A DNA stretch of 64,000 nt from Rhynchopus sp. YZ270_cl-10 (Eukaryota). Positions 5,992-46,542 of the stretch are shown piece by piece. Both the position numbers and the translations under genes were made by a program. Numbering within the stretch: position 1 is the first letter of the stretch; every line of letters starts with the position of its first letter. The notes below the pieces were generated by a model. It was not told the origin of the DNA, searched no databases, and was given only the letters and a program-made list of their open reading frames with translations. The stretch covers positions 1,550,001 through 1,614,000 of the forward strand of contig OZ037843.1 in NCBI GenBank assembly GCA_964035575.1. The letters run 5' to 3'.

Positions 5992-6391
5992 CAATAACAC
6001 AAGGCTTTTTAGGATTGTCTGTTTTGTTTAGGGATGGGAACTCAAAACCAACCAGGCGGTTGGATGAGTGCAACTAATAGTCTATTTTGTCACTGTGGTG
6101 GCGGTTTTGTCAACGAGGGGTAAAATAGTTAGTAACACACGCTTGAAAATAAAATCAAAACAAAATAAAACACACTCGCTTTTGTACCTGTGTCCACACT
6201 GCACAGTGGTGCTTAACAGCCTTTCTTGTTGATTGTTGATGTGCCTAACCGTGCAGTGATAAGAGTTGGAAATTACACCCAACTTATGCATTCAAATCTG
6301 CAGTTCACGTGCCCACAAAGCTCCGTTGTGCATGGCATACCATCTATATTGCTGTACTAGTAGAGCGCGTTTTGCCTCTCGGAACTTTCTC

Positions 6392-6541
6392 TACACTACA
6401 GTACACTACAGTACACTACAGTACACTACAGTACACTACAGTACACTACAGTACACTACAGTACACTACAGTACACTACAGTACACTACAGTACACTACA
6501 GTACACTACAGTACTACAGTACACTACAGTACACACTACAG
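6392..6541 (+). repeat. Tandem 10-bp minisatellite (GTACACTACA) x ~15
   Basis: Directly visible. It ends in ...cactacag 12 nt before the ATG at 6554. Confidence 0.95.
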
Positions 6542-6553
6542 GATCTTCACAAC

Positions 6554-9343
6554 ATGATGTTAGCCAGATCTGTGGCTGTTCTAGCGTTGCTCGTGTCGCT
6601 AGGAACACATGCCCAAGCAGCACGCAAGTATGAAGGTGTGCAGATCAGCATTGTGATGTCGGAGTGGGCAATGCGTCCATTTGGCCCATACGTGAAGCGC
6701 TTCTACGACGAAACAGGGTGCAACGTGACGCTTGTGCGTGACGACTCCGCCTCGCTCATCAAAAGGATTGCTGCAGCTTCGGACAGTGGGTTTGGTGAGG
6801 ATGGATACATGATTCTGTCGCTGGACCTTCCGCAGCTGGCACGTTCGGGGCATATCCGCGACCTGACGGACAGGATTCGTGGTGACGACAAACTGGCGTG
6901 GGACGATCTGCTTCCGTTCTACCGTGACCAGAACTCTGCGTACCGCAAGCGCACCTACGGGATGCCGTCTGACGGTGGTCTCATTGGCATGTTTGGGCGG
7001 AAGGACCTGGTCCCCATCGGAAGCGAGCCAGAGACTGTCGAGGAGCTGCTAGCGATGGTGAAGCGCTTCGATGGGCAGGACTTGAACGGCGATGGGATCC
7101 CCGACCGTGGGTGGTGTGAGTGCAGAGGACCCACAGATGACATCCTGACGACACTTGTGAACGGGGAGTACGTGATGCAGTTCATTGCAACATACATGCA
7201 GACGAAGGGCTCGCAGCAGGGCATCTGGTTTGACCCTGTCACAATCCAGGCGAAGGTCGACCACGAGGGGTTCAGGAAGGGATTCGAAATGGCGCTGGCG
7301 GTGTGGCAGGCAGGGACACGTGCCACAGGCAATGAGTGCAACAGACACGCAGACTCTACATCAGGCATGAACATTCCCCGCATGAGGTGGGGGAACGGCA
7401 CGTGTGCGTTCTCAGTGAACTGGCAGGGAGGGATACTGCGTGATTTCTATTTGGAGAACACGTACGCAGGTGTAGGCACGAACAGGACAAGGCTCTTTCC
7501 ATTCCCAGGCACCACACACGTCGACATCGACAAGAAGCTGACGGAGTGCACAGCCTCAAGCTGCCCGTATGCCGTGAAGGGACGTTCTGGGAAGCTGCTC
7601 AACTACGCACCCTACGCAGCCCTGGGGGGAGGGTACAGCCTGCTGATTGGAACACACTCACAGCACTTTGATGCCACATTTGATTTCATGTCGCATCTGA
7701 TTGAGCCGAAGAATTCTGCCGTGTGGGTGACCGACAGGCAGTCTGCGTCATTCGAACCGTTCCGTGCGTCGCATCTGTACGCACCTGGCTGGGAGAAGGA
7801 GTGGGGCAAGGACATTGCGGACCAGTTCATTGAGACTGTGCGGTTCACGAACATCGGTGAGAAGAACATTGCGCCGGACTCCACTATTCCTGAGGCCCCT
7901 TTTTTTTCTCTGGACGTGGGCGTGGTGTTTTCAAAGGCACTTGAGGGAAACCTTACTGTGGACGAAGCGCTGCAGGAGATCAGAAACCTGTGGCTCATCC
8001 GTGCCGAGCGCAACGGTCTTGAGAAGGTGCGCGATCTCTACCGGGAGACACTGGGGCTGTCGCCGTACGCTCCGCCCACCTTGCTGACTACGGTCGAGGA
8101 TGCGCTGGAAACATGGCACATCATCCTGATCGTGGTGGGCGGTGTGCTCGCTGTGGTGGTCATCCTGTTCCTGGTCTACAAATACCGCATGAGCAATGAA
8201 GCGTACAGACTGCAGTTCGCCGACAACGTCGTGGCCGCACGGTGCGCGAAGGCCATTGCCTCTATGCAGCTGGACCAGGTGGCGTATCTTGCGGAGCTGA
8301 AGACGCCGAACGCTATTCAGGCGTCCTTCATTGAGATTGTGAACCGCTTGCATCAGTACAAGGCGTACATGCCGCAGTCGTTGTTTGTGAAGGATGATTC
8401 CAGCGATGATGCGGGAGAGAGCACCGTCAAGCCCGAGCGCAGTGCAGTGTCGTCTGTGAAGTCTTCGCGCAACTCAAGCTCCAGAAACTCCAGAAAATCG
8501 CGTTCAACGACGATGAGCCTTGCACACCACAGGGAGAAGGTCAACCTCTCGACTGAAGTGAAGAAGCGTAAGGTCTCTCTGGTGGTTACAAGCTTGAAGG
8601 CGTCGCTGATCGAGCAGGGCACGGCAGAGGTCAGCAAAACGATGGCAGCGTATCTGGAGGCTGCACAGTGCTGTGTGTCGAAGCACCGTGGGATCGTGGA
8701 CGAGGTGATTGGCGACAAGGTGCATTCTTCGTACAACACCACGCAGCCTTCGGTGCAGCACGGCAACATGGCGATGCAGTGCGTTGTGGGCATGATGAAG
8801 GAGTTTAACATGGACGTCATCTCTGCAGCAGCGTCTGGGCAGGTGATGTGCGGCAACGTCGGGTGTGCGAGCCTCATGCGCTACGGCATCATTGGGCAGG
8901 CCGAGGTGACTGTCTGGTCGTTGCACAGAATGTGTCAAGACTGGGGCTGTCTGAACCTTTGCGACGAAGGTGTCTGCCGTGACGCCTCGAGCTTCGAGCT
9001 ACGCGCCATAGCACGCGTCAAATCAGGCACGGCAAAGGACTTCCTGATCAGAGAAGCACTTCACAAGATCGAAACTGAATGCGACGAATGGATGTACGAG
9101 ATGGACAAACAGGACCAGAACAAGGTGTACGGTGCATACAACAAAGCGGTTGCATCGCTCTACAGTGGTGCGTTCGACGAGGCGACTGCACACATGAAAG
9201 GCTCCAACACGCCGCACGACGCTGAACTGTCCGAAAGAATCAGAAGGTTCCAAAACTCTGGCGAAGCACCCCTGCCCGTTCCAAGCGAGGTCAAGAAGAG
9301 CCTCCTTGCAATGTACACCCAAGCGGACCACGTCAATGTGTAG
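6554..9343 (+). CDS. Receptor-type class III nucleotidyl cyclase homologue: signal peptide, extracellular sugar-binding (ABC family 1-like) domain, one TM helix, degenerate cyclase domain
   Basis: Signal peptide MMLARSVAVLALLVSLGTHAQA. SBP motifs (DLTDRI..WDDLLPFYR..YGMPSDGG; DLNGDG). TM WHIILIVVGGVLAVVVILFLVY. YKAYMPQSL signalling-helix motif. Cyclase-like GIVDEVIGD and GQVMCGNVG..RYGIIG. The longer ORF start at 6266 just reads through the satellite. Confidence 0.85.
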   Translation: MMLARSVAVLALLVSLGTHAQAARKYEGVQISIVMSEWAMRPFGPYVKRFYDETGCNVTLVRDDSASLIKRIAAASDSGFGEDGYMILSLDLPQLARSGHIRDLTDRIRGDDKLAWDDLLPFYRDQNSAYRKRTYGMPSDGGLIGMFGRKDLVPIGSEPETVEELLAMVKRFDGQDLNGDGIPDRGWCECRGPTDDILTTLVNGEYVMQFIATYMQTKGSQQGIWFDPVTIQAKVDHEGFRKGFEMALAVWQAGTRATGNECNRHADSTSGMNIPRMRWGNGTCAFSVNWQGGILRDFYLENTYAGVGTNRTRLFPFPGTTHVDIDKKLTECTASSCPYAVKGRSGKLLNYAPYAALGGGYSLLIGTHSQHFDATFDFMSHLIEPKNSAVWVTDRQSASFEPFRASHLYAPGWEKEWGKDIADQFIETVRFTNIGEKNIAPDSTIPEAPFFSLDVGVVFSKALEGNLTVDEALQEIRNLWLIRAERNGLEKVRDLYRETLGLSPYAPPTLLTTVEDALETWHIILIVVGGVLAVVVILFLVYKYRMSNEAYRLQFADNVVAARCAKAIASMQLDQVAYLAELKTPNAIQASFIEIVNRLHQYKAYMPQSLFVKDDSSDDAGESTVKPERSAVSSVKSSRNSSSRNSRKSRSTTMSLAHHREKVNLSTEVKKRKVSLVVTSLKASLIEQGTAEVSKTMAAYLEAAQCCVSKHRGIVDEVIGDKVHSSYNTTQPSVQHGNMAMQCVVGMMKEFNMDVISAAASGQVMCGNVGCASLMRYGIIGQAEVTVWSLHRMCQDWGCLNLCDEGVCRDASSFELRAIARVKSGTAKDFLIREALHKIETECDEWMYEMDKQDQNKVYGAYNKAVASLYSGAFDEATAHMKGSNTPHDAELSERIRRFQNSGEAPLPVPSEVKKSLLAMYTQADHVNV

Positions 9344-10908: not shown

Positions 10909-11505
10909 ATATTTCCGAACACACACACACATATTATTCAAATCATTCAATCCGAGCCCAATCATTTCGGTTTGTATTATTTCCTTACAAACCGTACGCG
11001 TACCGCTTCGTATGTTTGTATACAAAACAATAAATGAACAAACGAGCCTTCCCCCGAAAATCTTGTCTTTGTCAACGTTTTTGGATGGTGGAACCAGCAG
11101 TCGATGAAGAACCATGAAAGAACTTCTTCAAAGAAGGAAAAATAAACTAATTTTTCGACTCCCCCCCAGTGTCCCCACTACTACAATGAAATGCAATACA
11201 AAACAAACAGAGTAGCAAAAACAAAAACAAAAACAACATGAAACGAACTTTTTCGACTCCCCCAGTGTCCCCACCCACCCCTATGTGTGCACGGAAAAAC
11301 CGTTTTTTTCGAATTTATTGTTACAACGAGGCCGCAGTGGACGTGCACAGCTGAAAATCACCTTTTGCATTTCCGCAATCGGTCCGCACTGTCCCAAAAC
11401 CCACCTTAGTTTTACCCCACCGACCAGTATTTTTTTCTTATTTTCTTTGTGTTGTCCTCCCCACCCCACCCTCCCCAAACCACCACATCACACCACACTA
11501 CAGAA

Positions 11506-14268
11506 ATGCGGTTTGCAGTCTTGTCTGCTTTGATATGCAGTGCTGCAGCTGTGCCACCACAGCCGTGTGCTGATCCCATCCTGCTCACGTCGTTCACAGA
11601 CTTCAGTGAACATGACCCGACCCGAACTCTAACCTTTGCGGGTGGGTTCCGGATGGAGGCGGATGTGACCGTGAACGCAGTGACAGATTGGGGACGCGTG
11701 TTTGACTTTTCGAATGGAGCAGGCCAGGACAATGTGCTGCTTGGGCTAGATCAGGGGGGGAAGTGGAACGCCCATGTGTACCACGGCACCACAAGACAGG
11801 CTGGGATCTTGGACCCCGTAGCCTCGCCGTTGGGTGTCGAGATGTCTATGGTGCTGGTGTACACACGCACGGGCCCTACGACAGGGCCGGCTGTGCTCTA
11901 CATCGATGGTGTCGAGCGCGTGAGTGGCGACTCAGGTCTTCCCCTCATGGTCACACGCACGAACAACCTCGTGAAGAGCAGCCCGTGGCCCCAAGATACG
12001 CCGCTCGACGGCACCGTCAAGAACTTCAAGTTCTATGCGTGCGATGCGACAAATGCTCCGGACACAGATGCACCACCAACTGACGCTCCAGCTACAGACG
12101 CACCACCTACGGATGCACCTGCAACAGATGCACCTGACACAGATGCACCACCAACTGACGCTCCAGCAACAGACGCTCCGGACACAGACGCACCACCAAC
12201 AGATGCACCGGCAACTGATGCACCAGCTACAGACGCTCCGGATACAGATGCACCATCAACAGACGCACCTGACACAGATGCACCACAAACTGATGCTCCA
12301 GCAACAGACGCTCCGGACACAAGTGCCCCACCAACTGACGCACCACCAACTGACGCTCCAGCTACAGATGCTCCAGCGACTGACGCGCCTGCAACAGATG
12401 CACCTGACACAGACGCGCCAGCAACTGACGCACCACCAACTGACGCACCGGCAACTGACGCACCTGACACAGATGCACCACCAACTGACGCACCAGCGAC
12501 AGACGCACCGGCAACTGATGCACCTGACACAGACGCACCACCAACAGATGCACCCGCAACTGATGCACCAGCTACAGACGCTCCGGATACAGATGCACCA
12601 CCAACAGACGCACCTGACACAGATGCACCACCAACTGACGCTCCAGCGACAGACGCACCGGCAACTGACGCACCGGTGACAGATGCTCCAGCTACAAACG
12701 CACCTGACACGATGGCGCCTTTGACACCTGCACCCCTGACAACAGCGCCTGTAACGTCAGCTCCAACCACAGTACCCACAGCCTCACCCACACCCGCACC
12801 CACAGCTGTGGAGACTACGGCGCCACGCTTCCGCGACACACCCACAAGTGGGCTCAAGGCCGAGTCGAAGGAGACGATCGAGGTGTCTTCCACCGTCGCA
12901 AGCAGTGCAGCAGTGGCGGGTGGTGCAGCAGGCAACGCAGGCAAGCTCGCAGTGCTGAACAGCTTTGGGTGTGAGATGGACGACGTGGACCTTGGTGACG
13001 AGACACTTGACTGGGAGTTCCACCCGCTCATGTTTGCGATGGGCTCTGCGCACGGGAAGTACAAGGTGGCTGCGATGGTGATGAACCCTCTGCTCATCAT
13101 GGTTGTGGGGATGATTGCGGTTGGCGTCTCGCTTGCGACGCAGCACACCTTGCATTACGCGAAGGAACGTGCGCTTGGGCTTGCACGCTTCCCGGGTGTG
13201 CTGTACGTGCCGTACCTGTTCCTGCTGCAGGGGACAAGCCTTGTGTCGACACAGGTTGTGTTCGACGCGTCGCGGTACTCGGCAGGTGTGGTGGTGATGG
13301 CGGCTGCAGTGCTGGGTGTGTGCCTCGTGTCGCCCGCACTTCTGTACTTCACTGTCCTGCGCCATGTGGAGCGCAACGCGGAGCTCTTCCCAGACCCTGC
13401 CATCACCGGGAACCCGATGACGGGCGAGCAGGGAGCACGTGCACACAGCAAGCTCTACAAGTTTGCCTTTGGGCTCGACATTTGGGTGTCACGTGAGTCG
13501 GGCCACTTCGCCGAACGCTACGGGATCTGCTTTGAGAACCTGCGCCCCGGATGTCTGTGGTACATTGTGTCTGAGCTGCTGTGCATTCTGTGCCTCTCAC
13601 TGCTCTCTGGCTGGAAGCCGACCACCAAGACTGCATGCGACACACGCAACTTCTCCATTGCAGTCATGCTCACCGCCTTCTTCCTTGCAGCCGCCATCAA
13701 ACGCCCTTTCATCGCACCCTTGGACAACCTTGTTGCGATCATAATGGGCTTTTCGATGGCCATGGCCGTCATCCTTATGTCCATTGCCATCACGACTGAG
13801 ACACAGAAGGACGCTGCCATCTACACTATCAGCATGTGGTGCCTGCTGGTGTCGGCACTGCTGATTATGGTGAAGTGTGTTTGGGACTTTGTGATGTACT
13901 CTGCGGACGTTTGCATGTCACGACGCACGGGTGCACGCGAGCTGGCACGCGACATGTACAGCAACAAGAAACACCTTAGCGAGATGGACATACTGCAGGT
14001 GAGCATGTCCGGCGTCACGACCCCAGTCTCGTCCTTCACACACGACGCCGTCGCACAGCCGTCGTCTGTCCTCTACGACTTCGACCTGGGCGCGACAGCT
14101 GGCGCACCAACGCTTCGCAAGATCTCCACACTCGAGGTCCCTCTACGCTCTACCGAGGCCTTTTCTTCAACGACGGGCAGGGCAGACGACGCCTCAGGAC
14201 ATGAAGACACAGGTGACAAGCTCAGCGCTACCTGCACCGTCACGCGTGCAAGACACATCTTTATATGA
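11506..14268 (+). CDS. Surface receptor-like protein, copy A: signal peptide, LamG/ConA-like lectin domain, (TDAPx)n mucin stalk, multi-pass TM domain (bodonin/DGF-1 C-terminus-like architecture)
   Basis: MRFAVLSALICSAAA signal. WGRVFDFSNG..DNVLLG..LYIDG..LDGTVKNFKFY LamG-like motifs. Pentapeptide repeat stalk, then about 7-8 hydrophobic helices after LDWEFHP. Confidence 0.85.
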   Translation: MRFAVLSALICSAAAVPPQPCADPILLTSFTDFSEHDPTRTLTFAGGFRMEADVTVNAVTDWGRVFDFSNGAGQDNVLLGLDQGGKWNAHVYHGTTRQAGILDPVASPLGVEMSMVLVYTRTGPTTGPAVLYIDGVERVSGDSGLPLMVTRTNNLVKSSPWPQDTPLDGTVKNFKFYACDATNAPDTDAPPTDAPATDAPPTDAPATDAPDTDAPPTDAPATDAPDTDAPPTDAPATDAPATDAPDTDAPSTDAPDTDAPQTDAPATDAPDTSAPPTDAPPTDAPATDAPATDAPATDAPDTDAPATDAPPTDAPATDAPDTDAPPTDAPATDAPATDAPDTDAPPTDAPATDAPATDAPDTDAPPTDAPDTDAPPTDAPATDAPATDAPVTDAPATNAPDTMAPLTPAPLTTAPVTSAPTTVPTASPTPAPTAVETTAPRFRDTPTSGLKAESKETIEVSSTVASSAAVAGGAAGNAGKLAVLNSFGCEMDDVDLGDETLDWEFHPLMFAMGSAHGKYKVAAMVMNPLLIMVVGMIAVGVSLATQHTLHYAKERALGLARFPGVLYVPYLFLLQGTSLVSTQVVFDASRYSAGVVVMAAAVLGVCLVSPALLYFTVLRHVERNAELFPDPAITGNPMTGEQGARAHSKLYKFAFGLDIWVSRESGHFAERYGICFENLRPGCLWYIVSELLCILCLSLLSGWKPTTKTACDTRNFSIAVMLTAFFLAAAIKRPFIAPLDNLVAIIMGFSMAMAVILMSIAITTETQKDAAIYTISMWCLLVSALLIMVKCVWDFVMYSADVCMSRRTGARELARDMYSNKKHLSEMDILQVSMSGVTTPVSSFTHDAVAQPSSVLYDFDLGATAGAPTLRKISTLEVPLRSTEAFSSTTGRADDASGHEDTGDKLSATCTVTRARHIFI
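12043..12720 (+). repeat. 15-bp coding tandem repeat (TDAP[A/P/D])
   Basis: acagatgcacca/actgacgcacc units, directly visible. Confidence 0.95.
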
Positions 14269-26039: not shown

Positions 26040-27321
26040 GGGTCAGTCCATAAACCCCCCCCCCCTGAAAGGTAACCTCAGCAACTATTTGGATATTATC
26101 AAATATGTAGTAGGACGTTCTGTTCGATTTTTGTTTTAATGAATCCAGAGTAAAGTTTCTGAATTCATTAAAACAAAAATCGAGCAAAAAGACCGAGTAC
26201 ATATTTGATGGATCACCCCTGAGAGGTAAATAAGTTACCGGTAACCTGAATTACCGGTAATTCCTTAAGGATTCCTTAAGAAACACGGAAAAAAGCAAAA
26301 AAACATCAAAAGAGGGGGTACTTTAATTTATCATTTGGAAGCCCTTCCCACTTTACGCGTTGTTCATTTTTGTCTTTTTTATTCTCAAAAAAATCGGTTC
26401 ATCCAATCGTGCCGGTTGCCGAGAGGCAGACCAGGGTCCTCCTCTTCTGCAATCTCAGGTGCCTTTTTCGTTGTGGTCTTTTCAGAAGAAATCGTGTAAG
26501 CCACCTCCACAAATTCTTGCGGATGGGAGAGCATGGAAGCAAGCACAGTTTTTTCTGTATTCCTTTGCCAACAAAAAAGAGCAGTGAAGAAGTTGCACTC
26601 TACACGGGTTATAGTGTATTGTGTTGAGTCCTTCAACTTCAACGCAATGCCAGTTGTATGAGCAATGTTGGACAGGTGTAAGGCAACATCATCTACTGTA
26701 ACAAGCTTCGTAACGACGATATCCTCCAAATGTCTGGACACGACTCCAAAATGGAAGTCCCGCCCATCTTTCCCGTGTTTTTCACAAAAATAGTTAGCAG
26801 TAACGGGTTTTGTACAAAACTTGAAAGGAGAAAATGCAAAAGTTCTTTGGACTGGAAGTGCCTCCCGACATCAGCCCACACAATTATGAAAACGAAAAGG
26901 CACCTGAGATTGCAGAAGAGGAGGACCCTGGTCTGCCTCTCGGCAACCGGCACGATTGGATGAACCGATTTTTTTGAGAATAAAAAAGACAAAAATGAAC
27001 AACGCGTAAAGTGGGAAGGGTTTCCAAATGATAAATTAAAGTACCCCCTCTTTTGATGTTTTTTTGCTTTTTTCCGTGTTTCTTAAGGAATCCTTAAGGA
27101 ATTACCGGTAATTCAGGTTACCGGTAACTTATTTACCTCTCAGGGGTGATCCATCAAATATGTACTCGGTCTTTTTGCTCGATTTTTGTTTTAATGAATT
27201 CAGAAACTTTACTCTGGATTCATTAAAACAAAAATCGAACAGAACGTCCTACTACATATTTGATAATATCCAAATAGTTGCTGAGGTTACCTTTCAGGGG
27301 GGGGGGTTTATGGACTGAGCC
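26040..27321. mobile_element. Foldback element with ~430-bp near-perfect arms, ATAT TSD, and a Sola-like transposase remnant in the loop (minus strand)
   Basis: Arms 26040-~26470 and ~26891-27321. The minus strand reads IIVWADVGRHF, then after a frameshift NYFCEKHGKDGRDFHFG. Confidence 0.85.
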
Positions 27322-30214: not shown

Positions 30215-30725
30215 TTTTTAGCAATCACTTGTTATTTTTTTTATATATCCACATTCCACCATACGTTTTGTTTTAGTTTTTAGATGTGCACGCACGGTGA
30301 GGTGCGTGATAGTGGAGCTCATCCTCAGGTGTCTCCACTGATGCCGAGGTTTTCAAAAATAAAAAATCCCCTCCTCTTTTTTTGCTACTGACACTTGAAC
30401 ACTACTTGGTCTCGGTCTCATCAGCTTCATTTTCAGTGTTTTTCATCAAACACAAGACCGGCAAAATGTCTGACCAGACAGAGCCTTCTCTCCCAATAAA
30501 AAGGTCCACTGATTTGCCCTATTTTCTGCCACACTCTTATTTTGATTAAGGTACGGACCTAAACCTACTCGTCACTTCCTGAGGGTGCATACGATGCGTT
30601 TGAACATGAGGAGCAACTGCTTAGAGGTACTTTGTCGTCTGTCACGGATATGGTCGGATGAGAATTGCCTGATTCTACTTGCACCACTCCACTCCCACAA
30701 CAGAAAAAACACACAAAAAACACCA

Positions 30726-31512
30726 ATGGAACTCAACATCGAGGGATTTGATGGCAAGAAGTATGTGGTCGATGTGGATGTGGATGACACAGCGAAGGAC
30801 CTGCGGCAGAAGGTGGCAGCTACAACGGGGTTTTGCTGAAGACAGCTTTGACATGGGCTTTGGAAGGGACGACGAAGGAGAGGACATCAACATCACAGCG
30901 CTGAGTGCTGGGGACACAGTCGTATTGACGCAGAAAAATCGGTACAAAGCCATTGCAGCTCTTCGTGCATTGGGTGAGACAGCGGGGCTTGCGCGTGTGG
31001 AAGACCCCGAGGTAGTGCGGTTGTTTCTGCAGGCAGAACTTGTAACTGTGATTCCGTGCAAGTTCCTGGCAGGTACTAATTTACGTAGCCTTGATCTGAG
31101 TGTCCCGTTGGCTATTACTGCGATTGATGACAAATTCTTACAGAAGTGTTCATCGTTGGAATCAATTGACTTCTCTGGGTTGCGCAACGTCACGAAAATA
31201 GGTCAGTACTTCCTGTACGCCTGCAAGTCATTGCACACTTTTGAGCCATTCAACTTTGTGGGTTTGAGCAGTGTCACAAGCATCGGGAATCGCTTCTTAT
31301 CAAGTTGCACAGCGTTAGCCTCCATTGAATTTTCAGGATTGAGCAATGTCACAAGCCTTGGGGACTACTTCTTGTCAGATGCCGAGTCGTTAACCTCTAT
31401 CGACTTTGCAGGACTGAGTGGTGTGACACGAACTGGGAGCACATTTCTTGAAGGTTGCACTTCTTTAGAAACATACGACTTTCCAGCATTGAGAGCTATT
31501 CAGGACAGGTAG
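30726..31512 (+). pseudogene. Ubiquitin-like domain + BspA-type leucine-rich repeat protein with one frameshift
   Basis: MELNIEGFDGKKYVVDVDVDDTAKDLRQKVA (Ubl N-terminus) continues in the +1 frame after ggggtttt (~30827-30834) as GFAEDSFDMGF..LSAGDTVVL. LRRs follow (LESIDFSGLRNVTKIGQYFL-type). Confidence 0.75.
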
Positions 31513-36202: not shown

Positions 36203-36779
36203 TCCCCTCCTCACGACCATGTGCCCCATTCCCTGGTGCGAAGGGGTCGTGTGCATTCCCTCTGGTCCGTCGGTGCCCTGTGCTCATTGGGTCCAGCAAA
36301 CGCCTAGTGTTGTGTTCCAGGACACTTCGTCTTTCTTTAATCTGTACACTGGTTCCTTGGAAAACCCGTTTTTAAAGGTATCCAGGTTTTACTGGAGGGA
36401 GCATGACGTCGTCCGCTTTCGCACGCGAGGTGGCGCCCTTTATTCGCATATTCCTAAATTGAAAAGTTAAGGCGTAACTGCCTCCCAGCCGAGCTCTCTT
36501 CAACTTGAGTTTTAGCTTTTCAATTTAGGAATATGCGAATAAAGGGCGCCACCTCGCGTGCGAAAGCGGACGACGTCATGCTCCCTCCAGTAAAACCTGG
36601 ATACCTTTAAAAACGGGTTTTCCAAGGAACCAGTGTACAGATTCAAGAAAGACGAAGTGTCCTGGAACACAACACTAGGCGTTTGCTGGACCCAATGAGC
36701 ACAGGGCACCGACGGACCAGAGGGAATGCACACGACCCCTTCGCACCAGGGAATGGGGCACATGGTCGTGAGGAGGGGA
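36203..36779. repeat. Long near-perfect inverted repeat (268-bp arms, 41-bp loop)
   Basis: Arms 36203-36470 and 36512-36779. ORFs 36219-36470(+) and 36512-36763(-) differ by one residue. Confidence 0.95.
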
Positions 36780-37112: not shown

Positions 37113-37230
37113 ATGAACCTCATCCTGCGCAGCCTGTGGGCCACAGATGAAGCCCTTGACGGCACCGTCAAGAACTTCAAGTTCTCTGCGTGCGATGCGA
37201 CAAATGCTCCAGCAACTGATGCACCTGGCA
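37113..37230 (+). pseudogene. Fragment of the LamG/mucin receptor family (end of lectin domain and start of stalk)
   Basis: NLILRSLWATDEALDGTVKNFKFSACDATNAP matches 43735-43830 (NLILRSPWASDDPLDGTVKNFKFYACDATNAP). Confidence 0.85.
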
Positions 37231-37386: not shown

Positions 37387-40300
37387 ATGGGATCCGGAGC
37401 GTCGAAGTCTGAAAAGGACAAGATTGCAAAGGGAATTACGGGGAAGGAGAGGCCCGTGGACGCAGTGGACAGCGTGGACGGGAGGACAATGCTGCACAGT
37501 GCCGTGCTTGCAGGGGACGTGGGGGCAGTGCGGTTTCTTGTGGTGAACGGGGCAGGGAACGTGCGTGACAAGGTCGGGAAGGTGCCGCTGTGGTACGCAC
37601 TGCAGCACAGGGACGCGGGTGTGCGGGGGCGACTTGAGGCGGAGCTGGGGGCGCATGCAGCAGAGGTCCTTGTGGAGGTGGAGGATGCTGTGCAGGTGTA
37701 CCTCACTGACGGTGTCGGGACAACAACAGCAACAGGTGGTGTGTCGGTGGAACGGAGCAGTGGAGATACAACGACAACACCCCTTACCGACCCTCGCGTA
37801 GGCATGGCGAAAGACACGACCACGACTGGAGACAGACGCCTAGGAGTGGACGATCTTGACGGGGACACGGGTGCACTGCGGCGCACAGACGGACGGAAGG
37901 TGGGGTGGCTGAGCAAAAAGGAGGACAACAACAACAATGGAGGGGCAGACCTGCTGTGCTGGCTGCGTGGTCTGCCAAAGGTGGATCCGCCGTTGGGCTA
38001 CACAGACGAACACGTGCGGCACATAGAGGCGGGGTTCCGTGTGGTGTGCAAGCGTCTGCTGGAGGACATCAGAGGACGGAGGGAGGCTGCGGGGACACGT
38101 GGTGGGCACGTGGAGGTGGAGGACTGGATGGCGGCACGCGACCCGTTTGAGCTGCTGCTGTCGGGGTTCCTGTTCACGTCTGACTGCGTGGAGTATGTGC
38201 TGGACAGCGGCGGGGATGCTGTGTGTGACGAGCACGGGACACCGCAGATTGCGAAAGGGCCTGACGGGAAGCTGCGGTACATCCGTCTGGCGGAGCGGGC
38301 TGTGCTGGACAACCACGGGAGTGCTGCTGATTCACAGTCGCTTGCGCTGTACATGACGATGAACACTGCGATGCGTGCTGTGGGGCAGCTGCCTGCGGTG
38401 AAGGAGTGGAAGGGGACACCTGGGAAGACAGCACCGAACGTGTTTGAGCTGTCGCCCGCACCCTCGCAGCTTCACGTGATTGCTACCTTTGCGCCGCTGA
38501 TCCGTGGTCTGGACCGGCTGATTGGGAGCCGGCGGAAGCAGCTGCGGACTGTGTTCCGCGGGATCAATGTGAACGTGTCTGCGAAGTACGCGCTGGGGAC
38601 GCACGTTGTGTGGAACTGCTTCACGTCGACAACACTGAAGCGGGATGTGGCTCGGAGCTTCATGTACGGGAAGGGGGGCACGTTCTTTGTGGTGGTGGCG
38701 AAGGAGGGTGCTGCTGACGTGAAGTTCTCGTCTGTGTATGCTTCGGAGGACGAGCTGCTGTACACAGCGAACATCGAGTACCGGGTGCAGTGGAAGCTCT
38801 CGCCGACGCTGCTGCGGATGATGGGGCTGCGCTTTGACGTGATTGTGATGCAGGAGGTGTGCACGGGTGTGGGGGAGACGAGTGCGGCTGAGCAGGTGGG
38901 TGCGCTGCAGGAGGTGATGGGGCACACAGTGGCGTTCTTCAAAGACTACCTTGCGCAGTACGTGGAGGGGCGTGTGGGGGACGACACACGTGTGGATGAG
39001 TCGGAGACACGTCCGCTGATGGAGGAGGTGCGGAGGTGGCTTTGTGCACGTGCACGCAGGAGGCCTACGTCTGCAGTATGCACACAGGCAGCAGCAGGCA
39101 CAGAGACGGACACGAAGACGAAGACGACGAAGGTGGGCAAGGTAAGTCTTCAAAAGAAGAAGAACAAGAAAACGAAATCTGCTGACATCGCCAGAGATAG
39201 TGGAAGAGGAAAGAACGTGCTTCAAAGGAAAAAGAAGTCTACGTGTGACGTGTTGTGTGTGATCGGAGAAGGAGGGAGCGGGAAGACGTCTGCTTCGATT
39301 GCAATTCTGAGCGACCTTGCAACGTCTGCGAGGAAGAGCGAAAGCACCAACAGCGAAGACACAAACAGGAACAGAAACAGCGTGGTGAGTGATGTGGCTG
39401 CGGCTGCGAAGCCGTACTTCCCTGTGTTTGTGGCGCTGCCGACTGTGAAGCAGCACCTGCTTGAGAAGGGAGGGCTGGACAGGTTTGTGTTGGAGTCGTT
39501 TGCGCTGCGGGAGGCGGACCGTGCGTTCCTTGCGGAGACGTACGAGGTGGTGCTGGTGCTGGACTCGCTGGACGAGGTGGGGCTGACGCAGGAGGATGTG
39601 GGTGCTGTGGTGGCTGAGGGTGGTCTTATGCGCCGGCATCCGTGGGTGGAGGCACACTGCAGCGTTGTCGTGACTGTGCGTGGGGAGTACCTGAAGGGCG
39701 TGGACACGTCTCCGTCTGGTGTGTGTGGCGCTGGTGTGCATGCTCTGTACATGCAGCCGTTTACAGAGGTGGATGCGAGAACGTACATCGAGCGTGCAAA
39801 CACAGCCTGGGAGAAGGAACACAAAGAGGAGAAGAAGAAGGGAGAGCGTACAGTCTTCGTGTGTGAGGAGGACGTTGAGGGACTTGTGATGCTGCGGAAC
39901 CCGTTTGTGTTGCACATGGCGTGCCACGCGCAGTGCAGCGGGAAGGCTTCTGAGGAGGTGATCTACGAGACCTACCTGGAGACGTGGACGAAGAAGGAGA
40001 TGGCGTCTGGTGGAGTTGCTGGTGCAGATGTGTCTTTTGAGGAAGTGGTGCGTGCAGGGGAGCTTGTTGCATGCAGGATGCTGGAGACAAACGAGTGGCA
40101 GGGGACTGTGGGTGTGGCGTCGCAGATTCTTGATTCGCAGCACGATGTGTGTGAGGCTGTGCGGGATGCGTGCTTCCGCTGCCTGCCCTTCCGTATTGAG
40201 GACTTTGGGGAAGAGCGGAGTGCGTTCACGTTCCGGCACAAGTCGCTTGGGGAGCACCTTGCAGCACGGCGGCTGGCACGTGATCCAGCAGGGACGCTGG

Positions 40301-42630
40301 GGACGCTGGTGCAGCGGAGCTTCAGCAAGGACTCGCAGCGTGTGCTTGGGTTCTTTGCGGCGCTAGTGTGTGCAGACAGTGAGCTGTACAAACGTGCTTG
40401 CGCAGAGCTGCTTGCGGCTGTGAAGGCGACACGCGCAGGTGCAGGTGCAGGTGGAGATGCAGGTGTTAGTGGGGAGGGTGCTGTGACAGCAGGGTCGAAT
40501 GCAGCAGCACTGCTGGCACGTGCACGCATCCCTGTGAGTGGGGAGGACCTGAGCGGGATCCGTGTGTCGAACTGCGACCTGCGCGGGTCTCTGTTTGTGG
40601 AGACGGCGCTGACGGGCGCTTCCTTCTCGAACTGCTGGCTGGAGCACACTGAGTTCAACACCTGTGACATGGGTGGCACGATGCTGCCTGACTGCTCCCT
40701 TGGCACACCACTTCCTGTACTGAAGCAATATGTCGGTGATGTGGCGATGACGCCTGATGGCACTCAAATGCTAACAACTGGTCTCGACACAGTACGCGTG
40801 TGGAGCATGTCTTCTGGGGAAGAAGTGATGGTCTTGGATGTACGCTCGCGAGGTTTTTCAGTAATGGGGCAGCAGGCTGGACCAGTAGCAGTTACACCTG
40901 ACGGAACCCGCGTAGTTTTTGCGTGCTCCATGGACAACACTGTGCGTGTGTGGGATATGCACACTGGGGAGGCAGTGTTCGTCTTGGAAGGCCACGAAGC
41001 TGAGGTGGACGCATTGGCAGTCACTCCCGACAGTTCTAAAGTTGCTTCATGTTCTTCTTGCGCCCTCCTTGTGTGGGATCTCTCGACGGGGAAAAAAACG
41101 TTGGCAATAAATTCGGAGCTTGGTATTCGCAGCATGGTTATCGCTCAGGATGGAAGTAAAATAGTGACTTGCTTTGAGGAGGTGATGTGCGTACGGGATC
41201 TGGTCACGGGGAAGACGGAGATGGAATGGCCTTGTCGTGTGGAGTCTTCGCATGCACTGGCAGTCACTCCCGATGGATGCCATGTTGTTTCGTGCTATAA
41301 TGACGCACACCTTTGGAACCTCTCCACTGGGGCAGAGGTGATGGTGTTCCGTGCCGACGCTATGCTGAGTGCTGTGGCAGTCACTCCTGATGGATGTCAC
41401 GTGGTTGCTGGATCCTTGAGTGCCACTGTGCACGTTTGGAGCATTTCCACTGGGAAGGAGGTGACGGTGTTGCGAGGGCATACTGCTTCGGTGACGGCAG
41501 TGGCAGTGGCACCAGATGGCTACGTGGTTTCATGCGCCCGAGACGCCAGAGTTCGAGTGTGGAACATCACGACCGGGAAGGAGGCGTCGGGTTTCGAAGG
41601 ACTCGCGGGTGGGTCTGTGGCAGTGGCCCCTGACGGATCTATCATTTCGTACAGAGGGAAGAGGAACTCCATCTGGAACGCATCCACCGGCAGGCAGACA
41701 CAGGTAGTTGAAGCAGGAACAAACAAACATGAAAGCACTGCTGCGACCGTGTACCCAGATGGATCTCATGTAGTTTATTGCTCTTGCAACGACGCTGGCG
41801 AAAGGAGCACGTGTGTGTGGGACGTTGCGACGGGAAAAGTGCGGCCTTTGTGCACGGATTCCAGTGAGTTCGCGGTGTTCTTGAAAGAGTCTGCGGGACT
41901 TGGGTTCTTGGCAGTGTCTCCCGATGCATCTCACGTGGTGACCTGTTCAGAGCGGGGCCAAGGCTTTCGGTCGGATGTGTGGAGCATGACGACTGGGAAG
42001 AAGGTGGCAGAATGTGCAGCAAATTACGTACCCTTAGCAGCGGTAGTGACGTCTGATGGAGTGCATGTGGTTTCGCGCCATTCTGACAGCACCGTACGCA
42101 TGTGGAAACTTCGCACTGGAGAAGAGACCATGGTGTTCATAGGAAATAACGATGCCTCCGACGTGGCCGTGACTCGCGACGGGTCTCGTGTTGTTGTTGC
42201 ATGCTCTTCCAATATTGTGCGTGTGTGGGATGTTGCCACCGGGAAGGAGGTCTTCACCTTGGAACAGCCAGGCAAGAATGGTAGTCGCGTATTGGCACTG
42301 ACACCTGATGGAACTCACTTGGTGTCGTCTGGACGCGATTCTGTGACCGTGTGGAGCATGACCACTGGCGAGGTGGTGGCAGCGATCAGGGGACATTATG
42401 CTTTGTACAGCGTTGCTGTGAGCCCCGATGGGCATGAAGTGATCTGTGGTTGTGAGGATAACACTGTGCGTGTATGGACCATCTGCACTGGAGAAGATGG
42501 CACTATTGTTGGGTTGCGGCTGAAGAGAGTCATTGGCATCCCTCAAACAGTCCCTTGTGCATTGGGCTGTCGCAATGCTGATACTGTGGAGCCTGCGCTT
42601 GCGAGACGCATTCTTTGTGCTGGGGTGTGA
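37387..42630 (+). CDS. NLR-like STAND protein: myristoylation motif, ankyrin repeats, ADP-ribosyltransferase, NACHT NTPase, pentapeptide repeats, 14 WD40 repeats
   Basis: MGSGAS start. Ankyrin GRTMLHSAV..GDVGAVRFLV..RDKVGKVPLWYA. ART motifs LYMTMNTAMR, VFRGI, WNCFTSTT, SEDELL. Walker A GEGGSGKT (39265-39288), Walker B LVLDSLDE, plus VVTVRGEY, RNPFVL and FRHKSLGEHLAA. Pentapeptide DLSGIRVSNCDLRGSLF. 14 VAVTPDG...W[D/S/N] units. Confidence 0.92.
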   Translation: MGSGASKSEKDKIAKGITGKERPVDAVDSVDGRTMLHSAVLAGDVGAVRFLVVNGAGNVRDKVGKVPLWYALQHRDAGVRGRLEAELGAHAAEVLVEVEDAVQVYLTDGVGTTTATGGVSVERSSGDTTTTPLTDPRVGMAKDTTTTGDRRLGVDDLDGDTGALRRTDGRKVGWLSKKEDNNNNGGADLLCWLRGLPKVDPPLGYTDEHVRHIEAGFRVVCKRLLEDIRGRREAAGTRGGHVEVEDWMAARDPFELLLSGFLFTSDCVEYVLDSGGDAVCDEHGTPQIAKGPDGKLRYIRLAERAVLDNHGSAADSQSLALYMTMNTAMRAVGQLPAVKEWKGTPGKTAPNVFELSPAPSQLHVIATFAPLIRGLDRLIGSRRKQLRTVFRGINVNVSAKYALGTHVVWNCFTSTTLKRDVARSFMYGKGGTFFVVVAKEGAADVKFSSVYASEDELLYTANIEYRVQWKLSPTLLRMMGLRFDVIVMQEVCTGVGETSAAEQVGALQEVMGHTVAFFKDYLAQYVEGRVGDDTRVDESETRPLMEEVRRWLCARARRRPTSAVCTQAAAGTETDTKTKTTKVGKVSLQKKKNKKTKSADIARDSGRGKNVLQRKKKSTCDVLCVIGEGGSGKTSASIAILSDLATSARKSESTNSEDTNRNRNSVVSDVAAAAKPYFPVFVALPTVKQHLLEKGGLDRFVLESFALREADRAFLAETYEVVLVLDSLDEVGLTQEDVGAVVAEGGLMRRHPWVEAHCSVVVTVRGEYLKGVDTSPSGVCGAGVHALYMQPFTEVDARTYIERANTAWEKEHKEEKKKGERTVFVCEEDVEGLVMLRNPFVLHMACHAQCSGKASEEVIYETYLETWTKKEMASGGVAGADVSFEEVVRAGELVACRMLETNEWQGTVGVASQILDSQHDVCEAVRDACFRCLPFRIEDFGEERSAFTFRHKSLGEHLAARRLARDPAGTLGTLVQRSFSKDSQRVLGFFAALVCADSELYKRACAELLAAVKATRAGAGAGGDAGVSGEGAVTAGSNAAALLARARIPVSGEDLSGIRVSNCDLRGSLFVETALTGASFSNCWLEHTEFNTCDMGGTMLPDCSLGTPLPVLKQYVGDVAMTPDGTQMLTTGLDTVRVWSMSSGEEVMVLDVRSRGFSVMGQQAGPVAVTPDGTRVVFACSMDNTVRVWDMHTGEAVFVLEGHEAEVDALAVTPDSSKVASCSSCALLVWDLSTGKKTLAINSELGIRSMVIAQDGSKIVTCFEEVMCVRDLVTGKTEMEWPCRVESSHALAVTPDGCHVVSCYNDAHLWNLSTGAEVMVFRADAMLSAVAVTPDGCHVVAGSLSATVHVWSISTGKEVTVLRGHTASVTAVAVAPDGYVVSCARDARVRVWNITTGKEASGFEGLAGGSVAVAPDGSIISYRGKRNSIWNASTGRQTQVVEAGTNKHESTAATVYPDGSHVVYCSCNDAGERSTCVWDVATGKVRPLCTDSSEFAVFLKESAGLGFLAVSPDASHVVTCSERGQGFRSDVWSMTTGKKVAECAANYVPLAAVVTSDGVHVVSRHSDSTVRMWKLRTGEETMVFIGNNDASDVAVTRDGSRVVVACSSNIVRVWDVATGKEVFTLEQPGKNGSRVLALTPDGTHLVSSGRDSVTVWSMTTGEVVAAIRGHYALYSVAVSPDGHEVICGCEDNTVRVWTICTGEDGTIVGLRLKRVIGIPQTVPCALGCRNADTVEPALARRILCAGV

Positions 42631-43275
42631 GCGCACTGTTCGTACTTGCTCTTTGTGTTTGCCTCTTTTCCAAGATGAATGCAGTCTGACGAGCACGAAT
42701 GGTGTTGACACTGCCTCGTGCGGTGGTACCCTCATGCCACTGCGGGTGCGTTGTGCGAGGACAGAAGAGCGGCTGTCGAGGTCAGTACACTACGTGTGCT
42801 TTCTGTTCATATTCACACGTCTTTTCCAAGATGTGTTGCGATTACATGTGTTATGTTCGTTTTGTGGATGTTTAAGTTATATTTGGAGTGAATATCACAC
42901 ACGCATACTTGCTTGTTGCTGTTTTTTTACCACCATGCATGCTTTGTGCTTTGACCACTTGGTTTTTGGAGTGTCCGACTGCCACTTCCACATCTGTACA
43001 CTATTCATTTCAGCTTTTCCCCGCAGTTTGGAGCTCAGGTGGAGAGTTGAGGAATACCACAAACCTTTCCCCCCATGGAAAAAAACCCTGCTCTTTTTAA
43101 AACGGGTGCTTTGTTTTCCTGTATTGTTGTTCTCGTTGCTCGGTTGCCAAAACGCCATCAGAAAGTAATGCACGCAGCAGCAAGCTCCTCTGTCGTCCAA
43201 CCCTTTTCTTCATGTAGTGATCTAGCCTCCGCACCCCACCCTCTCCAACCCACCACATCACACCACACTACAGAA

Positions 43276-46200
43276 ATGCGGTTTGCAGTCTTGTCTGCTT
43301 TGATATGCAGTGCTGCAGCTGTGCCACCAGACCCGTGTGCTGGTCCCATCCTGCTCACGTCGTTCACAGACATCAGTGAACATGACTCGACCCGAACTCT
43401 GACGTTTGGGGGTGGGTTCCGGATGGAGGCGGATGTGACCGTGAACTCAGCTACGCATTGGGCACGTGTGTTTGACTTTTCGAACGGGCCGACTGCGGAC
43501 AACGTGCTGCTTGGGTTGAACGGGGGAAAGTGGAGCTACCAAACGTATCTCGGCTCCAGCGGGCAGACCATCGTTGCGGACCCGGTAGACACGCCGTACG
43601 GTACAGAGATGCACATGGTGCTGGTGGGAATAGATAGCGGCCACCCCACGGACGGGGAGGTTGTGCTGTACATCGACGGCGCAGAACGCATGCGGCAGAC
43701 AGTCCCGCTCCCCGCCATGCTCACACGCAACACGAACCTCATCCTGCGCAGCCCGTGGGCCTCAGATGACCCCCTCGACGGCACCGTCAAGAACTTCAAG
43801 TTCTATGCGTGCGATGCGACAAATGCTCCGGACACAGACGCACCACCAACTGACGCTCCAGCTACAGACGCACCAGCGACAGATGCACCTGCAACTGACG
43901 CACCAGCTACAGATGCACCTGCAACAGATGCACCTGACACAGATGCACCACCAACTGACGCACCAGCTACAGATGCTCCAGCGACTGACGCACCAGCAAC
44001 AGATGCACCTGACACAGATGCACCACCAACTGACGCTCCAGCTACAGACGCACCAGCGACAGATGCACCTGCAACTGACGCACCAGCTACAGATGCACCA
44101 CCAACTGACGCACCTGGCACAGATGCTCCAGCAACAGATGCTCCAGCGACTGACGCACCAGCTACAGATGCACCTGACACAGACGCACCTGCAACTGATG
44201 CACCAGCTACAGATGCACCAGCAACTGACGCACCAGCGACTGACGCACCTGACACAGACGCACCAGCTACAGACGCACCTGCAACAGATGCTCCAGCAAC
44301 TGATGCACCAGCGACTGACGCACCGGCAACTGACGCACCTGACACAGATGCTCCAGCAACAGATGCTCCAGCGACTGACGCACCAGCTACAGATGCACCT
44401 GACACAGACGCACCCGCAACAGATGCTCCAGCAACTGATGCACCAGCAACTGACGCACCTGACACAGACGCACCAGCTACAGACGCACCCGCAACAGATG
44501 CTCCAGCAACTGATGCACCAGCGACAGATCCACCAGCGACAGACGCACCTGCGACAGACGCACCTGCGACTGACGCACCTGACACAGATGCTCCGTACAC
44601 AAATGCACCACCAACTGATGCTCCAGCAACTAATTCACCTACAACTGACGCACCAGCAACAACTGCACCCGACACAGACGCCCCTGATACAGTTGCCCCA
44701 CCAACAAATGCTCCTGACGCGCCTGACACAATTGCACCTGACACAGTTTCTCCCGATACAGTTGCTCCTGATACAGATGGGCCAGCGACCCCTGCCACCG
44801 ACGCACCTGCCACTTTGACCACTGCACCACATACAACAGCGCCTCTCACAGTGAAGCCTGCTTCACGTACTATGGCACCCACTCCCACCATGGCACCGGT
44901 CGTATCTCCTGTCACAGGCACACCAGCTGTTCCAGGTACAGGGACGCCAGCACCATCCACACCTGTGCCAACACCTGCGCCCACCCCTGCACCGTTGGAG
45001 ACGTCCGACGTGGAGACACCTGCACGCTTCCGCGATACACCCACAAGTGGGCTCAAGGCCGAGTCGAAGGAGACGCTCCATGTGTCCTCCACAGTCGCTA
45101 GTACCACAGCTGTCCTCGGTGGTGCAGCAGGCAACGCAGGCAAGCTCGCAGTGCTGAACAGCTTTGGGTGTGAGATGGACGACGTGGACCTTGGTGACGA
45201 GACACTTGACTGGGAGTTCCACCCGCTCATGTTTGCGATGGGCTCTGCGCACGGGAAGTACAAGGTGGCTGCGATGGTGATGAACCCTCTGCTCATCATG
45301 GTTGTGGGGATGATTGCGGTTGGCGTCTCGCTTGCGACGCAGCACACCTTGCATTACGCGAAGGAACGTGCGCTTGGGCTTGCACGCTTCCCGGGTGTGC
45401 TGTACGTGCCGTACCTGTTCCTGCTGCAGGGGACAAGCCTTGTGTCGACACAGGTTGTGTTCGACGCGTCGCGGTACTCGGCAGGTGTGGTGGTGATGGC
45501 GGCTGCAGTGCTGGGTGTGTGCCTCGTGTCGCCCGCACTTCTGTACTTCACTGTCCTGCGCCATGTGGAGCGCAACGCGGAGCTCTTCCCAGACCCTGCC
45601 ATCACCGGGAACCCGATGACGGGCGAGCAGGGAGCACGTGCACACAGCAAGCTCTACAAGTTTGCCTTTGGGCTCGACATTTGGGTGTCACGTGAGTCGG
45701 GCCACTTCGCCGAACGCTACGGGATCTGCTTTGAGAACCTGCGCCCCGGATGTCTGTGGTACATTGTGTCTGAGCTGCTGTGCATTCTGTGCCTCTCACT
45801 GCTCTCTGGCTGGAAGCCGACCACCAAGACTGCATGCGACACACGCAACTTCTCCATTGCAGTCATGCTCACCGCCTTCTTCCTTGCAGCCGCCATCAAA
45901 CGCCCTTTCATCGCACCCATGGACAACATGATCGCAATCGCAATGGCCTTTTCGATGGCAGCTGCCGTCATCCTTATGTCCATTGCCATCACGACCGAGA
46001 CACAGAAGGACGCTGCCATCTACACTATCAGCATGTGTCTGCTGCTTACGGCTGCGGTTTTGATTATGGCAAAGTGTCTTTGGGACTTTGTCATTTACGC
46101 GATGGACGTTTGCATGATACGGAGGGTTGGTGCACGCGAGCTGGCACGCGACATGCGTGAGAGGAAGGTGGACGTGGATGAGCTTGAGCTTATGGGTGCG

Positions 46201-46542
46201 ACAGAAACACTTGCAAAAGACGAGGACGCGCACACCACCTCCTACAGACTGTCGCCACTGTCCCCTGAGGGCAGCTTCCTCGGCACGACAAAGAGACGTG
46301 GCACGTCAGGCTCGCTCCTCGCCAGCAGCGACCTCGACAGCAGCAAGATCATGCACAGCCCCATCAGCTCGAAGCGCCGCCGTGGCACCAACACCGACCT
46401 CACAGACCCCCTCTTCGGCACCTCCACCAGCGACCACAGCGACTCAGCACTCCCCACGCCAGGGGAAATATGCCTCCCAGCCACCTCCATGTCAATGGGA
46501 CGTACACGGGGGAAGTCGGCAGCACGCCTGCTGTATGTCTAA
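43276..46542 (+). CDS. Surface receptor-like protein, copy B (paralogue of 11506-14268)
   Basis: Same signal peptide and architecture as copy A, with a longer stalk and a different cytoplasmic tail. The ORF extension to 43075 is upstream non-coding sequence. Confidence 0.85.
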   Translation: MRFAVLSALICSAAAVPPDPCAGPILLTSFTDISEHDSTRTLTFGGGFRMEADVTVNSATHWARVFDFSNGPTADNVLLGLNGGKWSYQTYLGSSGQTIVADPVDTPYGTEMHMVLVGIDSGHPTDGEVVLYIDGAERMRQTVPLPAMLTRNTNLILRSPWASDDPLDGTVKNFKFYACDATNAPDTDAPPTDAPATDAPATDAPATDAPATDAPATDAPDTDAPPTDAPATDAPATDAPATDAPDTDAPPTDAPATDAPATDAPATDAPATDAPPTDAPGTDAPATDAPATDAPATDAPDTDAPATDAPATDAPATDAPATDAPDTDAPATDAPATDAPATDAPATDAPATDAPDTDAPATDAPATDAPATDAPDTDAPATDAPATDAPATDAPDTDAPATDAPATDAPATDAPATDPPATDAPATDAPATDAPDTDAPYTNAPPTDAPATNSPTTDAPATTAPDTDAPDTVAPPTNAPDAPDTIAPDTVSPDTVAPDTDGPATPATDAPATLTTAPHTTAPLTVKPASRTMAPTPTMAPVVSPVTGTPAVPGTGTPAPSTPVPTPAPTPAPLETSDVETPARFRDTPTSGLKAESKETLHVSSTVASTTAVLGGAAGNAGKLAVLNSFGCEMDDVDLGDETLDWEFHPLMFAMGSAHGKYKVAAMVMNPLLIMVVGMIAVGVSLATQHTLHYAKERALGLARFPGVLYVPYLFLLQGTSLVSTQVVFDASRYSAGVVVMAAAVLGVCLVSPALLYFTVLRHVERNAELFPDPAITGNPMTGEQGARAHSKLYKFAFGLDIWVSRESGHFAERYGICFENLRPGCLWYIVSELLCILCLSLLSGWKPTTKTACDTRNFSIAVMLTAFFLAAAIKRPFIAPMDNMIAIAMAFSMAAAVILMSIAITTETQKDAAIYTISMCLLLTAAVLIMAKCLWDFVIYAMDVCMIRRVGARELARDMRERKVDVDELELMGATETLAKDEDAHTTSYRLSPLSPEGSFLGTTKRRGTSGSLLASSDLDSSKIMHSPISSKRRRGTNTDLTDPLFGTSTSDHSDSALPTPGEICLPATSMSMGRTRGKSAARLLYV
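43813..44810 (+). repeat. 15-bp coding tandem repeat (TDAP[A/P/D])
   Basis: Directly visible. Confidence 0.95.

Follow-up and report, generated by a model that had tools for sequence, protein, structure and literature searches.

What would a single-celled organism do with a protein that joins, in one chain, a toxin-type ADP-ribosyltransferase (ART), a nucleotide-operated NACHT switch and a long array of WD40 repeats? Such a protein is predicted from an open frame in the window, the 64-kb stretch of DNA analysed here. By its sequence and predicted structure it is of the NLR type: the ART site is intact, an ATPase switch of the NACHT kind follows, and the WD40 end is hypervariable. From these features and from analogy with better-known receptors, we consider it probable, though well short of assured, that the product is an intracellular sensor of non-self serving defence against intracellular microbes, with arginine ADP-ribosylation or NAD+ breakdown as its output. 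The preliminary description of the locus had listed an MGxxxS start, ankyrin repeats, ART, NACHT, pentapeptide repeats and 14 WD40 repeats, and the 1747-residue frame holds them in that order:

37387..42630, + strand: the whole ORF, 1747 aa (P0001), an open frame without stop
37387..37404, + strand: MGSGAS, N-myristoylation-like motif, aa 1-6; M and G in 55/55 copies, residue 6 S in 54/55 and T in 1/55
37414..37611, + strand: ankyrin pair, aa 10-75; Pfam Ank_2 27.7 bits (cut-off 27.3), one repeat good and one weak
37942..38871, + strand: predicted R-S-E clade ART domain including a helical N-lobe, aa 186-495; Pfam ART, predicted model, Foldseek, Z 15.6 to HopU1
38557..38559, + strand: ART R391 (VFRGI); 55/55 close copies and 101/104 distant domains
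38626..38634, + strand: ART STT motif, S414; 55/55 close copies, the aligned residues of HopU1 being STT too
38746..38754, + strand: ART E454-x-E456; 55/55 close copies, triad plus ExE in 89/104 distant domains
38869..40545, + strand: predicted NACHT module (nucleotide-binding, helical and winged-helix parts; FRHKS at 40231), aa 495-1053; model pLDDT 85.9, Foldseek NLRC4, NLRP2, NOD2, NLRP3
39109..39246, + strand: Lys-rich disordered linker variant, aa 575-620; pLDDT <50, common to a minority of copies in the alignment
39265..39288, + strand: Walker A GEGGSGKT; G, K and T in 55/55 copies
39553..39576, + strand: Walker B LVLDSLDE; 55/55 copies
40546..40695, + strand: pentapeptide-repeat linker, aa 1054-1103; Pfam PF00805 and PF13599, recurrent short strands in the model
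40711..42492, + strand: 14 WD40 repeats, hypervariable at repeat positions 10-12, 14 and 30-32; domain scan and 55-copy alignment

Every motif first pointed out from the letters alone (R391 at 38557, STT at 38626, ExE at 38746-38754 and both Walker motifs) lies where it had been placed. The single intronless ORF reported at the same time is indeed uninterrupted from 37387 to 42630, intronless being a term that here describes the open reading frame in the DNA only. GTAAGT occurs at 39142, inside the Lys-rich linker, but an intron at this place was judged unlikely, since several copies have homologous in-frame linkers. Two types of linker occur among the copies at 39109-39246, and P0047 apparently has both in tandem, which suggests recombination between paralogues. 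MGxxxS/T is the consensus for N-myristoylation, and the MGSGAS start, conserved among copies, could putatively carry this modification. When sub-regions were submitted to Pfam, the ART (PF01129, 31.8; cut-off 22.3) and the pentapeptide repeats (26.9; cut-off 20.2) both scored above threshold, and the repeat count of 14 would correspond to two 7-bladed propellers. Over its unique flanks and the WD40 stretches 41386-41578 and 41996-42656, the locus agrees without a single difference with contigs from three public runs; because of this match, these two stretches are not assembly errors. The same contigs, together with the periodic pattern of the WD40 variation, rule out assembly error as its source.

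The window has several other sequence features. About 600 nt upstream of the ATG is a near-perfect palindrome (36203-36779; 268-nt arms, 41-nt loop), whose two arms, to judge by read contigs, are both real and do not belong to a large repeat family, and an inverted repeat at 26053-27309 has 415-nt arms that are 100% complementary, with 427 nt between them. Just upstream of the NLR gene, 37115-37225 is a 111-nt fragment 90% identical to part of the downstream lectin gene (43734-43844), which hints at rearrangement at the site. The frames 11410-14268 and 43051-46542 encode paralogous membrane proteins with a Laminin_G_3 lectin domain, a long stalk of 15-nt (TDAPA-type) repeats and a multi-pass C-terminus. 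A 1026-codon frame at 6263-9343 has a bacterial-type solute-binding domain (SBP_bac_8 above cut-off), and 30673-31512 encodes a short BspA-type LRR protein (LRR_5 1.8e-15).

Is the ART likely to be an enzyme? An ART fold had been expected for residues ~300-490, and the model of residues 186-500 (41-row alignment; pLDDT 86.5) bears this out, matching Vis and HopU1 at about 6e-9 by Foldseek and resembling HopU1 (Z 15.6, rmsd 3.6, 204 aligned), ExoS (Z 15.1) and ART2.2 (Z 14.8) in structural comparison. Family-profile matches were to HopU1 (8e-15), Vis (2e-14) and ART2 (3e-12); when the ART region was compared with the PDB as a single sequence, HopU1 came up at no better than E 0.94, an uninformative result. 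In the profile alignment R, S-T-T and E-x-E line up with Vis and with HopU1, itself an STT enzyme, and R391, S414, E454 and E456 are invariant in the 55/55 aligned full-length copies, in keeping with the complete R-S-E triad with ExE originally proposed. With a predicted ART fold and aligned R, S-T-S/T and ExE, the domain has the structural hallmarks of an arginine ART of the R-S-E clade.

The switch is conserved as well. The model of residues 495-1110 reached pLDDT 85.9, and the Foldseek matches listed were all animal NACHT or NLR structures, headed by NLRC4 (2.9e-11); matches to NLRC4, NOD2 and NLRP3 agree with the NACHT fold anticipated for residues ~610-970. Pfam NACHT scored 15.8 on the single sequence, below its cut-off of 26.7, and the assignment is backed by the family profile (NLRP6 2e-8, NLRP3 6e-7) and by the model match to NLRC4 at 2.9e-11. 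The Walker motifs, described as intact in this copy, prove invariant in the alignment: the Walker A K/T, Walker B and FRHKS are found in 55/55 copies, so that the motifs of Walker A/B, the sensor Arg and the winged helix are all invariant or nearly so. With a NACHT module, a C-terminal repeat sensor and an upstream effector, the predicted protein has the structural make-up of a NACHT-type STAND or NLR-like receptor.

The argument for a receptor is strengthened by its close copies. A search with residues 180-1110 returned 73 proteins, 59 of them 81-88% identical to the query and likely its paralogues. The paralogues left to be counted in the preliminary description thus come to about 60 close copies, a figure taken from the protein database and not from one whole genome. 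The query and its 59 relatives lie on contigs of 18 different sizes, 27 proteins on one contig of 1,539,504 bases. In run X2, a contig inside NACHT has a depth of 5701.5 versus 95-114 for unique pieces, a hint that all of the ~60 copies reside in one genome. P0002, P0064 and P0065 (contig of 185426) are double-length, permuted products (pentapeptide-WD40-ankyrin-ART-NACHT), an arrangement that fits tandem copies read through.

How these copies differ is informative. Aligning 55/60 of them, with 5 truncated ones left out, gave mean entropies (raw, over related copies) of 0.08 bits for the ART core and 0.17 for NACHT, whereas the halves of the WD40 region reached 0.85 and 1.08. The repeat register was anchored at P20 and W37, which we take to give het-e numbering; the pair pattern and the 18-codon spacing are independent of this anchor. 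Repeat positions 10, 11, 12, 14, 30 and 32 average 2.20 bits versus 0.77 elsewhere (again raw entropy, 55 copies), a value reached by 0/20000 random sets and 0/20000 register shifts. The four most variable positions are, in descending order, 14, 12, 30 and 32, and position 39 is without marked variation (0.54 bits). Pairs of the 55 copies differ by 0.79 on average for positions 12/14 and by 0.65 for all six positions together; the corresponding values are 0.16-0.27 for four linkers, 0.19 for strand cores, 0.14 for bottom loops and 0.027 for the ART. The combinations of top-face residues are distinct in 54/55 copies. In the DNA of repeat 7, as seen in contigs of two runs, 11/20 first and second codon positions of the two top loops vary and 2/36 framework third positions do (Fisher p about 6e-5); this favours positive selection at codon level, as a rough proxy and not a codon model, given one repeat, a 12% threshold, contig depths and indels in the b-c loop. 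The 35 coding differences seen in read contigs are a biased top list and were left out of the analysis. Repeats within one protein share 31% identity on average and 51% at most. Shuffling of repeats in the style of het-e was rejected on account of this low internal identity, which also makes it likely that the diversity arises by gene duplication and point change. The NLR-type receptor role first put forward gains strength from the set of about 60 close copies, in which engine and enzyme are invariant and the propeller top is hypervariable. That the ART is near-identical in all copies fits many specificities served by a single common output.

From diversifying selection one cannot distinguish the sensing of pathogens from the recognition of kin, mates or prey. 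It is conceivable that the same switch is instead set off by a polymorphic protein of the same species, as in het-e-like discrimination of self and non-self when cells fuse, mate or feed on their own kind. In evolutionary terms the nearest match is an allorecognition gene, alike in its NACHT-WD40 double-propeller build and in the positions that vary. However, we regard such a ligand as unlikely: with about 60 copies co-existing, a broad repertoire is a better fit than an allelic lock-and-key, no gene for a partner was found (the 64-kb window contains no second copy of the gene, and the neighbours are unrelated) and we know of no vegetative fusion in diplonemids.

The wider family shows how far the combination of ART and NACHT extends. 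An index-free search found 253 proteins at E <=0.001, of which 150 were listed. Among the matches examined, both ART and NACHT are present in 87/100 relatives of >600 aa outside the close set. In 86/86 distant proteins that have the two domains, a set gathered with an ART-containing query, the ART lies upstream of NACHT, with a median of 67 aa between them, and a strict Walker A pattern was found in 72/86. Of the distant ART domains that span the R-S-E triad, 98/104 have it intact, 89 of them with ExE. ART motifs are absent or degenerate in P0074, P0076, P0128, P0154 and P0199, possibly sensor-only or decayed members. Whereas the preliminary description had envisaged swaps of the effector, what is swapped among these relatives is the sensor end, with extra domains added at the N-terminus, and the ART stays before NACHT, as far as a set recruited through its ART can tell. 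The C-terminal ends comprise WD40, LRR (P0097, P0149, P0176), TPR (P0117, P0165, P0214) and ankyrin repeats (P0199), and the N-termini, some of them long, include SAM, EEP, RCC1 and ANF-receptor domains. In P0121, P0133, P0137 and P0142, ART-NACHT follows an ANF-receptor or RCC1-propeller N-terminus, which suggests surface-linked or GTPase-linked versions.

A protist origin, as first supposed, is supported by the mostly euglenozoan sources of these relatives. Among those with a species name, 18/19 (of 30 looked up) are Euglenozoa, belonging to Lacrimia, Diplonema, Flectonema, Namystynia, Artemidia, Euglena, Ploeotia, Apiculatamorpha and Papus; the lineage was checked for two, and the other genera are presumably euglenozoan as well. 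The Ploeotia relative is an ankyrin-ART protein without a NACHT match. One named relative comes from the filasterean Pigoraptor, which is cultured on kinetoplastid prey, and this record may be prey contamination. Proteins derived from transcriptomes of diplonemids, a euglenid and free-living kinetoplastids contain the ART-NACHT core, and the names of the majority of the named records are those of transcript assemblies, so that relatives are expressed. In a quick, unfinished tree (91 rows) the gene falls in a short-branched cluster beside Lacrimia and 'Hpha' proteins, and a weakly supported group in the same tree unites this cluster with Diplonema, which makes a diplonemid the likely host. No related loci were found in JGI metagenomes or, with P0078 as query, in viral contigs. 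A search with the Euglena ART-NACHT region found itself only, which says little about absence elsewhere, and a search of longer proteins found 2, which says equally little about absence from bacteria or other eukaryotes.

The ART sits mid-chain behind other domains, sometimes behind long N-termini, and such a placement would also fit ordinary signalling. Perhaps the propellers read molecules of prey or symbionts and the ART makes a reversible regulatory modification that does not kill. Relatives with receptor- or signalling-type N-termini (ANF receptor, RCC1, SAM, EEP), the many relatives in transcriptome-derived sets and a fold equally close to the eukaryotic ART2.2 (Z 14.8) would all suit a non-lethal signalling family, but variation close to saturation at a few surface codons, in copies otherwise about 90% identical, would indicate an arms race and not tuning to fixed chemical cues, and makes us doubt it. 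Least plausible is a selfish toxin or driver gene that has reached many copies by duplicating itself and whose propeller variation is relaxed and not selected: a recent burst of copies on contigs of 18 sizes, truncated and fused copies among them, and the lone copy here that adjoins a gene fragment and a palindrome would be in its favour, yet the variation is periodic and face-specific with conserved bottom loops and strand cores (0.14 and 0.19), the pairing of ART with NACHT is old within Euglenozoa and no transposase or antidote gene occurs among the 10 window ORFs scanned.

How might the intracellular sensor of microbes that we favour operate? By analogy with NLRC4, Apaf-1, HET-E and bacterial NACHT proteins, the protein would be held on the inner membrane face by its MG motif, and the two propellers would keep the ADP-bound NACHT shut. 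Binding of a foreign protein, or of a damaged guarded host protein, to the propeller tops would then permit nucleotide exchange and ring formation, by which the ART would be clustered or freed. The ART would in turn modify one conserved host target or drain NAD+, so that the infected cell is stopped or killed.

To our knowledge, the innate immunity of free-living unicellular eukaryotes is largely uncharted. A fungal survey linked NLRs to multicellularity (PMC4986451). If a likely diplonemid has a diversifying repertoire of 60 NLRs, it becomes a testable proposition that single cells use NLR-triggered defence or suicide against intracellular bacteria and viruses. If our reading is correct, ADP-ribosylation joins the known NLR outputs, and the same WD40 positions have come to serve recognition in an independent case.

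Several known systems share parts of this design. HopU1, ExoS/T, Vis, Tre1-type enzymes and ART2.2 are secreted, injected or cell-surface enzymes. As arginine-specific R-S-ExE ARTs they have the same fold and triad as the domain described here, which differs in being built into a STAND switch within a protein that starts with an MG motif. The literature gave no description of an ART-NACHT fusion or of euglenozoan NLRs within its accessible part, most subscription papers and supplements lying beyond it and being places where the fusion could be listed; to that extent, the earlier statement that no protist NLR of this architecture is known to have been characterised still holds. The main text of the D. 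papillatum genome paper (PMC10161547) has 0 matches for NACHT, WD40, ribosyl or immun, 'ribosyl' is absent from the main text of two fungal NLR surveys (one being PMC4986451), and the main text of PMC11291939 contains no 'ribosyl', 'euglen' or 'protist'. As far as these sources go, the NACHT-pentapeptide-WD40 chassis and STAND proteins headed by an NADase are already known, and the ART-NACHT pairing is the part found without a description.

Anti-phage bNACHT proteins share the three-part plan, beta-propeller or pentapeptide sensors, NAD+-targeting effectors and a faster-changing C-terminus (10.1101/2022.07.19.500537). Their effector list there, Table S1 aside, comprises TIR, sirtuin, DrHyd, PNPase, kinases and others and no ART (10.1101/2022.07.19.500537), and PADLOC matched 0/3 segments of the present protein. 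Closer in layout are the TeTIR/TEP1-type NACHT-WD40 NADases, which likewise place an NAD+-consuming enzyme directly before NACHT and end in WD40 or TPR repeats (10.64898/2026.09.21.753143), although that enzyme has a TIR-like fold and not the R-S-E ART fold predicted here. NACHT-PPR-WD40 NOD-like receptors are known from Mortierellomycota and Mycoavidus, and have the same NACHT, 'PPR' and WD40 chassis if PPR, unexpanded in the main text, is read as pentapeptide repeat (PMC11291939).

The fungal HNWD/NWD proteins, such as Podospora het-e and het-d, provide the nearest parallel. They have the same order of effector, NACHT and WD40 and a predicted double 7-bladed propeller (PMC1805685, PMC12222747, PMC4986451). 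The present gene is nevertheless not an HNWD member by its sequence: Pfam scans of its N-terminal segments matched no HET domain, the ART taking that place, a pentapeptide linker is added, the host is unicellular, about 60 copies compare with 10, and the internal repeat conservation of >85% that marks HNWD genes contrasts with a mean of 31% and a maximum of 51%. In het-e, the four positively selected codons form two pairs, each flanking a conserved site and 18 codons apart, on the propeller top (PMC1805685), and a later paper lists positions 10, 11, 12, 14, 30, 32 and 39 (PMC12222747). The four propeller-top positions that are most variable or selected (12, 14, 30 and 32) are the same in both. 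We see about an even chance that Euglenozoa possess an undescribed NLR immune system of their own, with a toxin-type arginine ART as its standard effector and all four classic sensors (WD40, LRR, TPR and ankyrin), of which one branch has here given rise to about 60 receptors and converged on the four propeller-top codons of het-e without its repeat shuffling.
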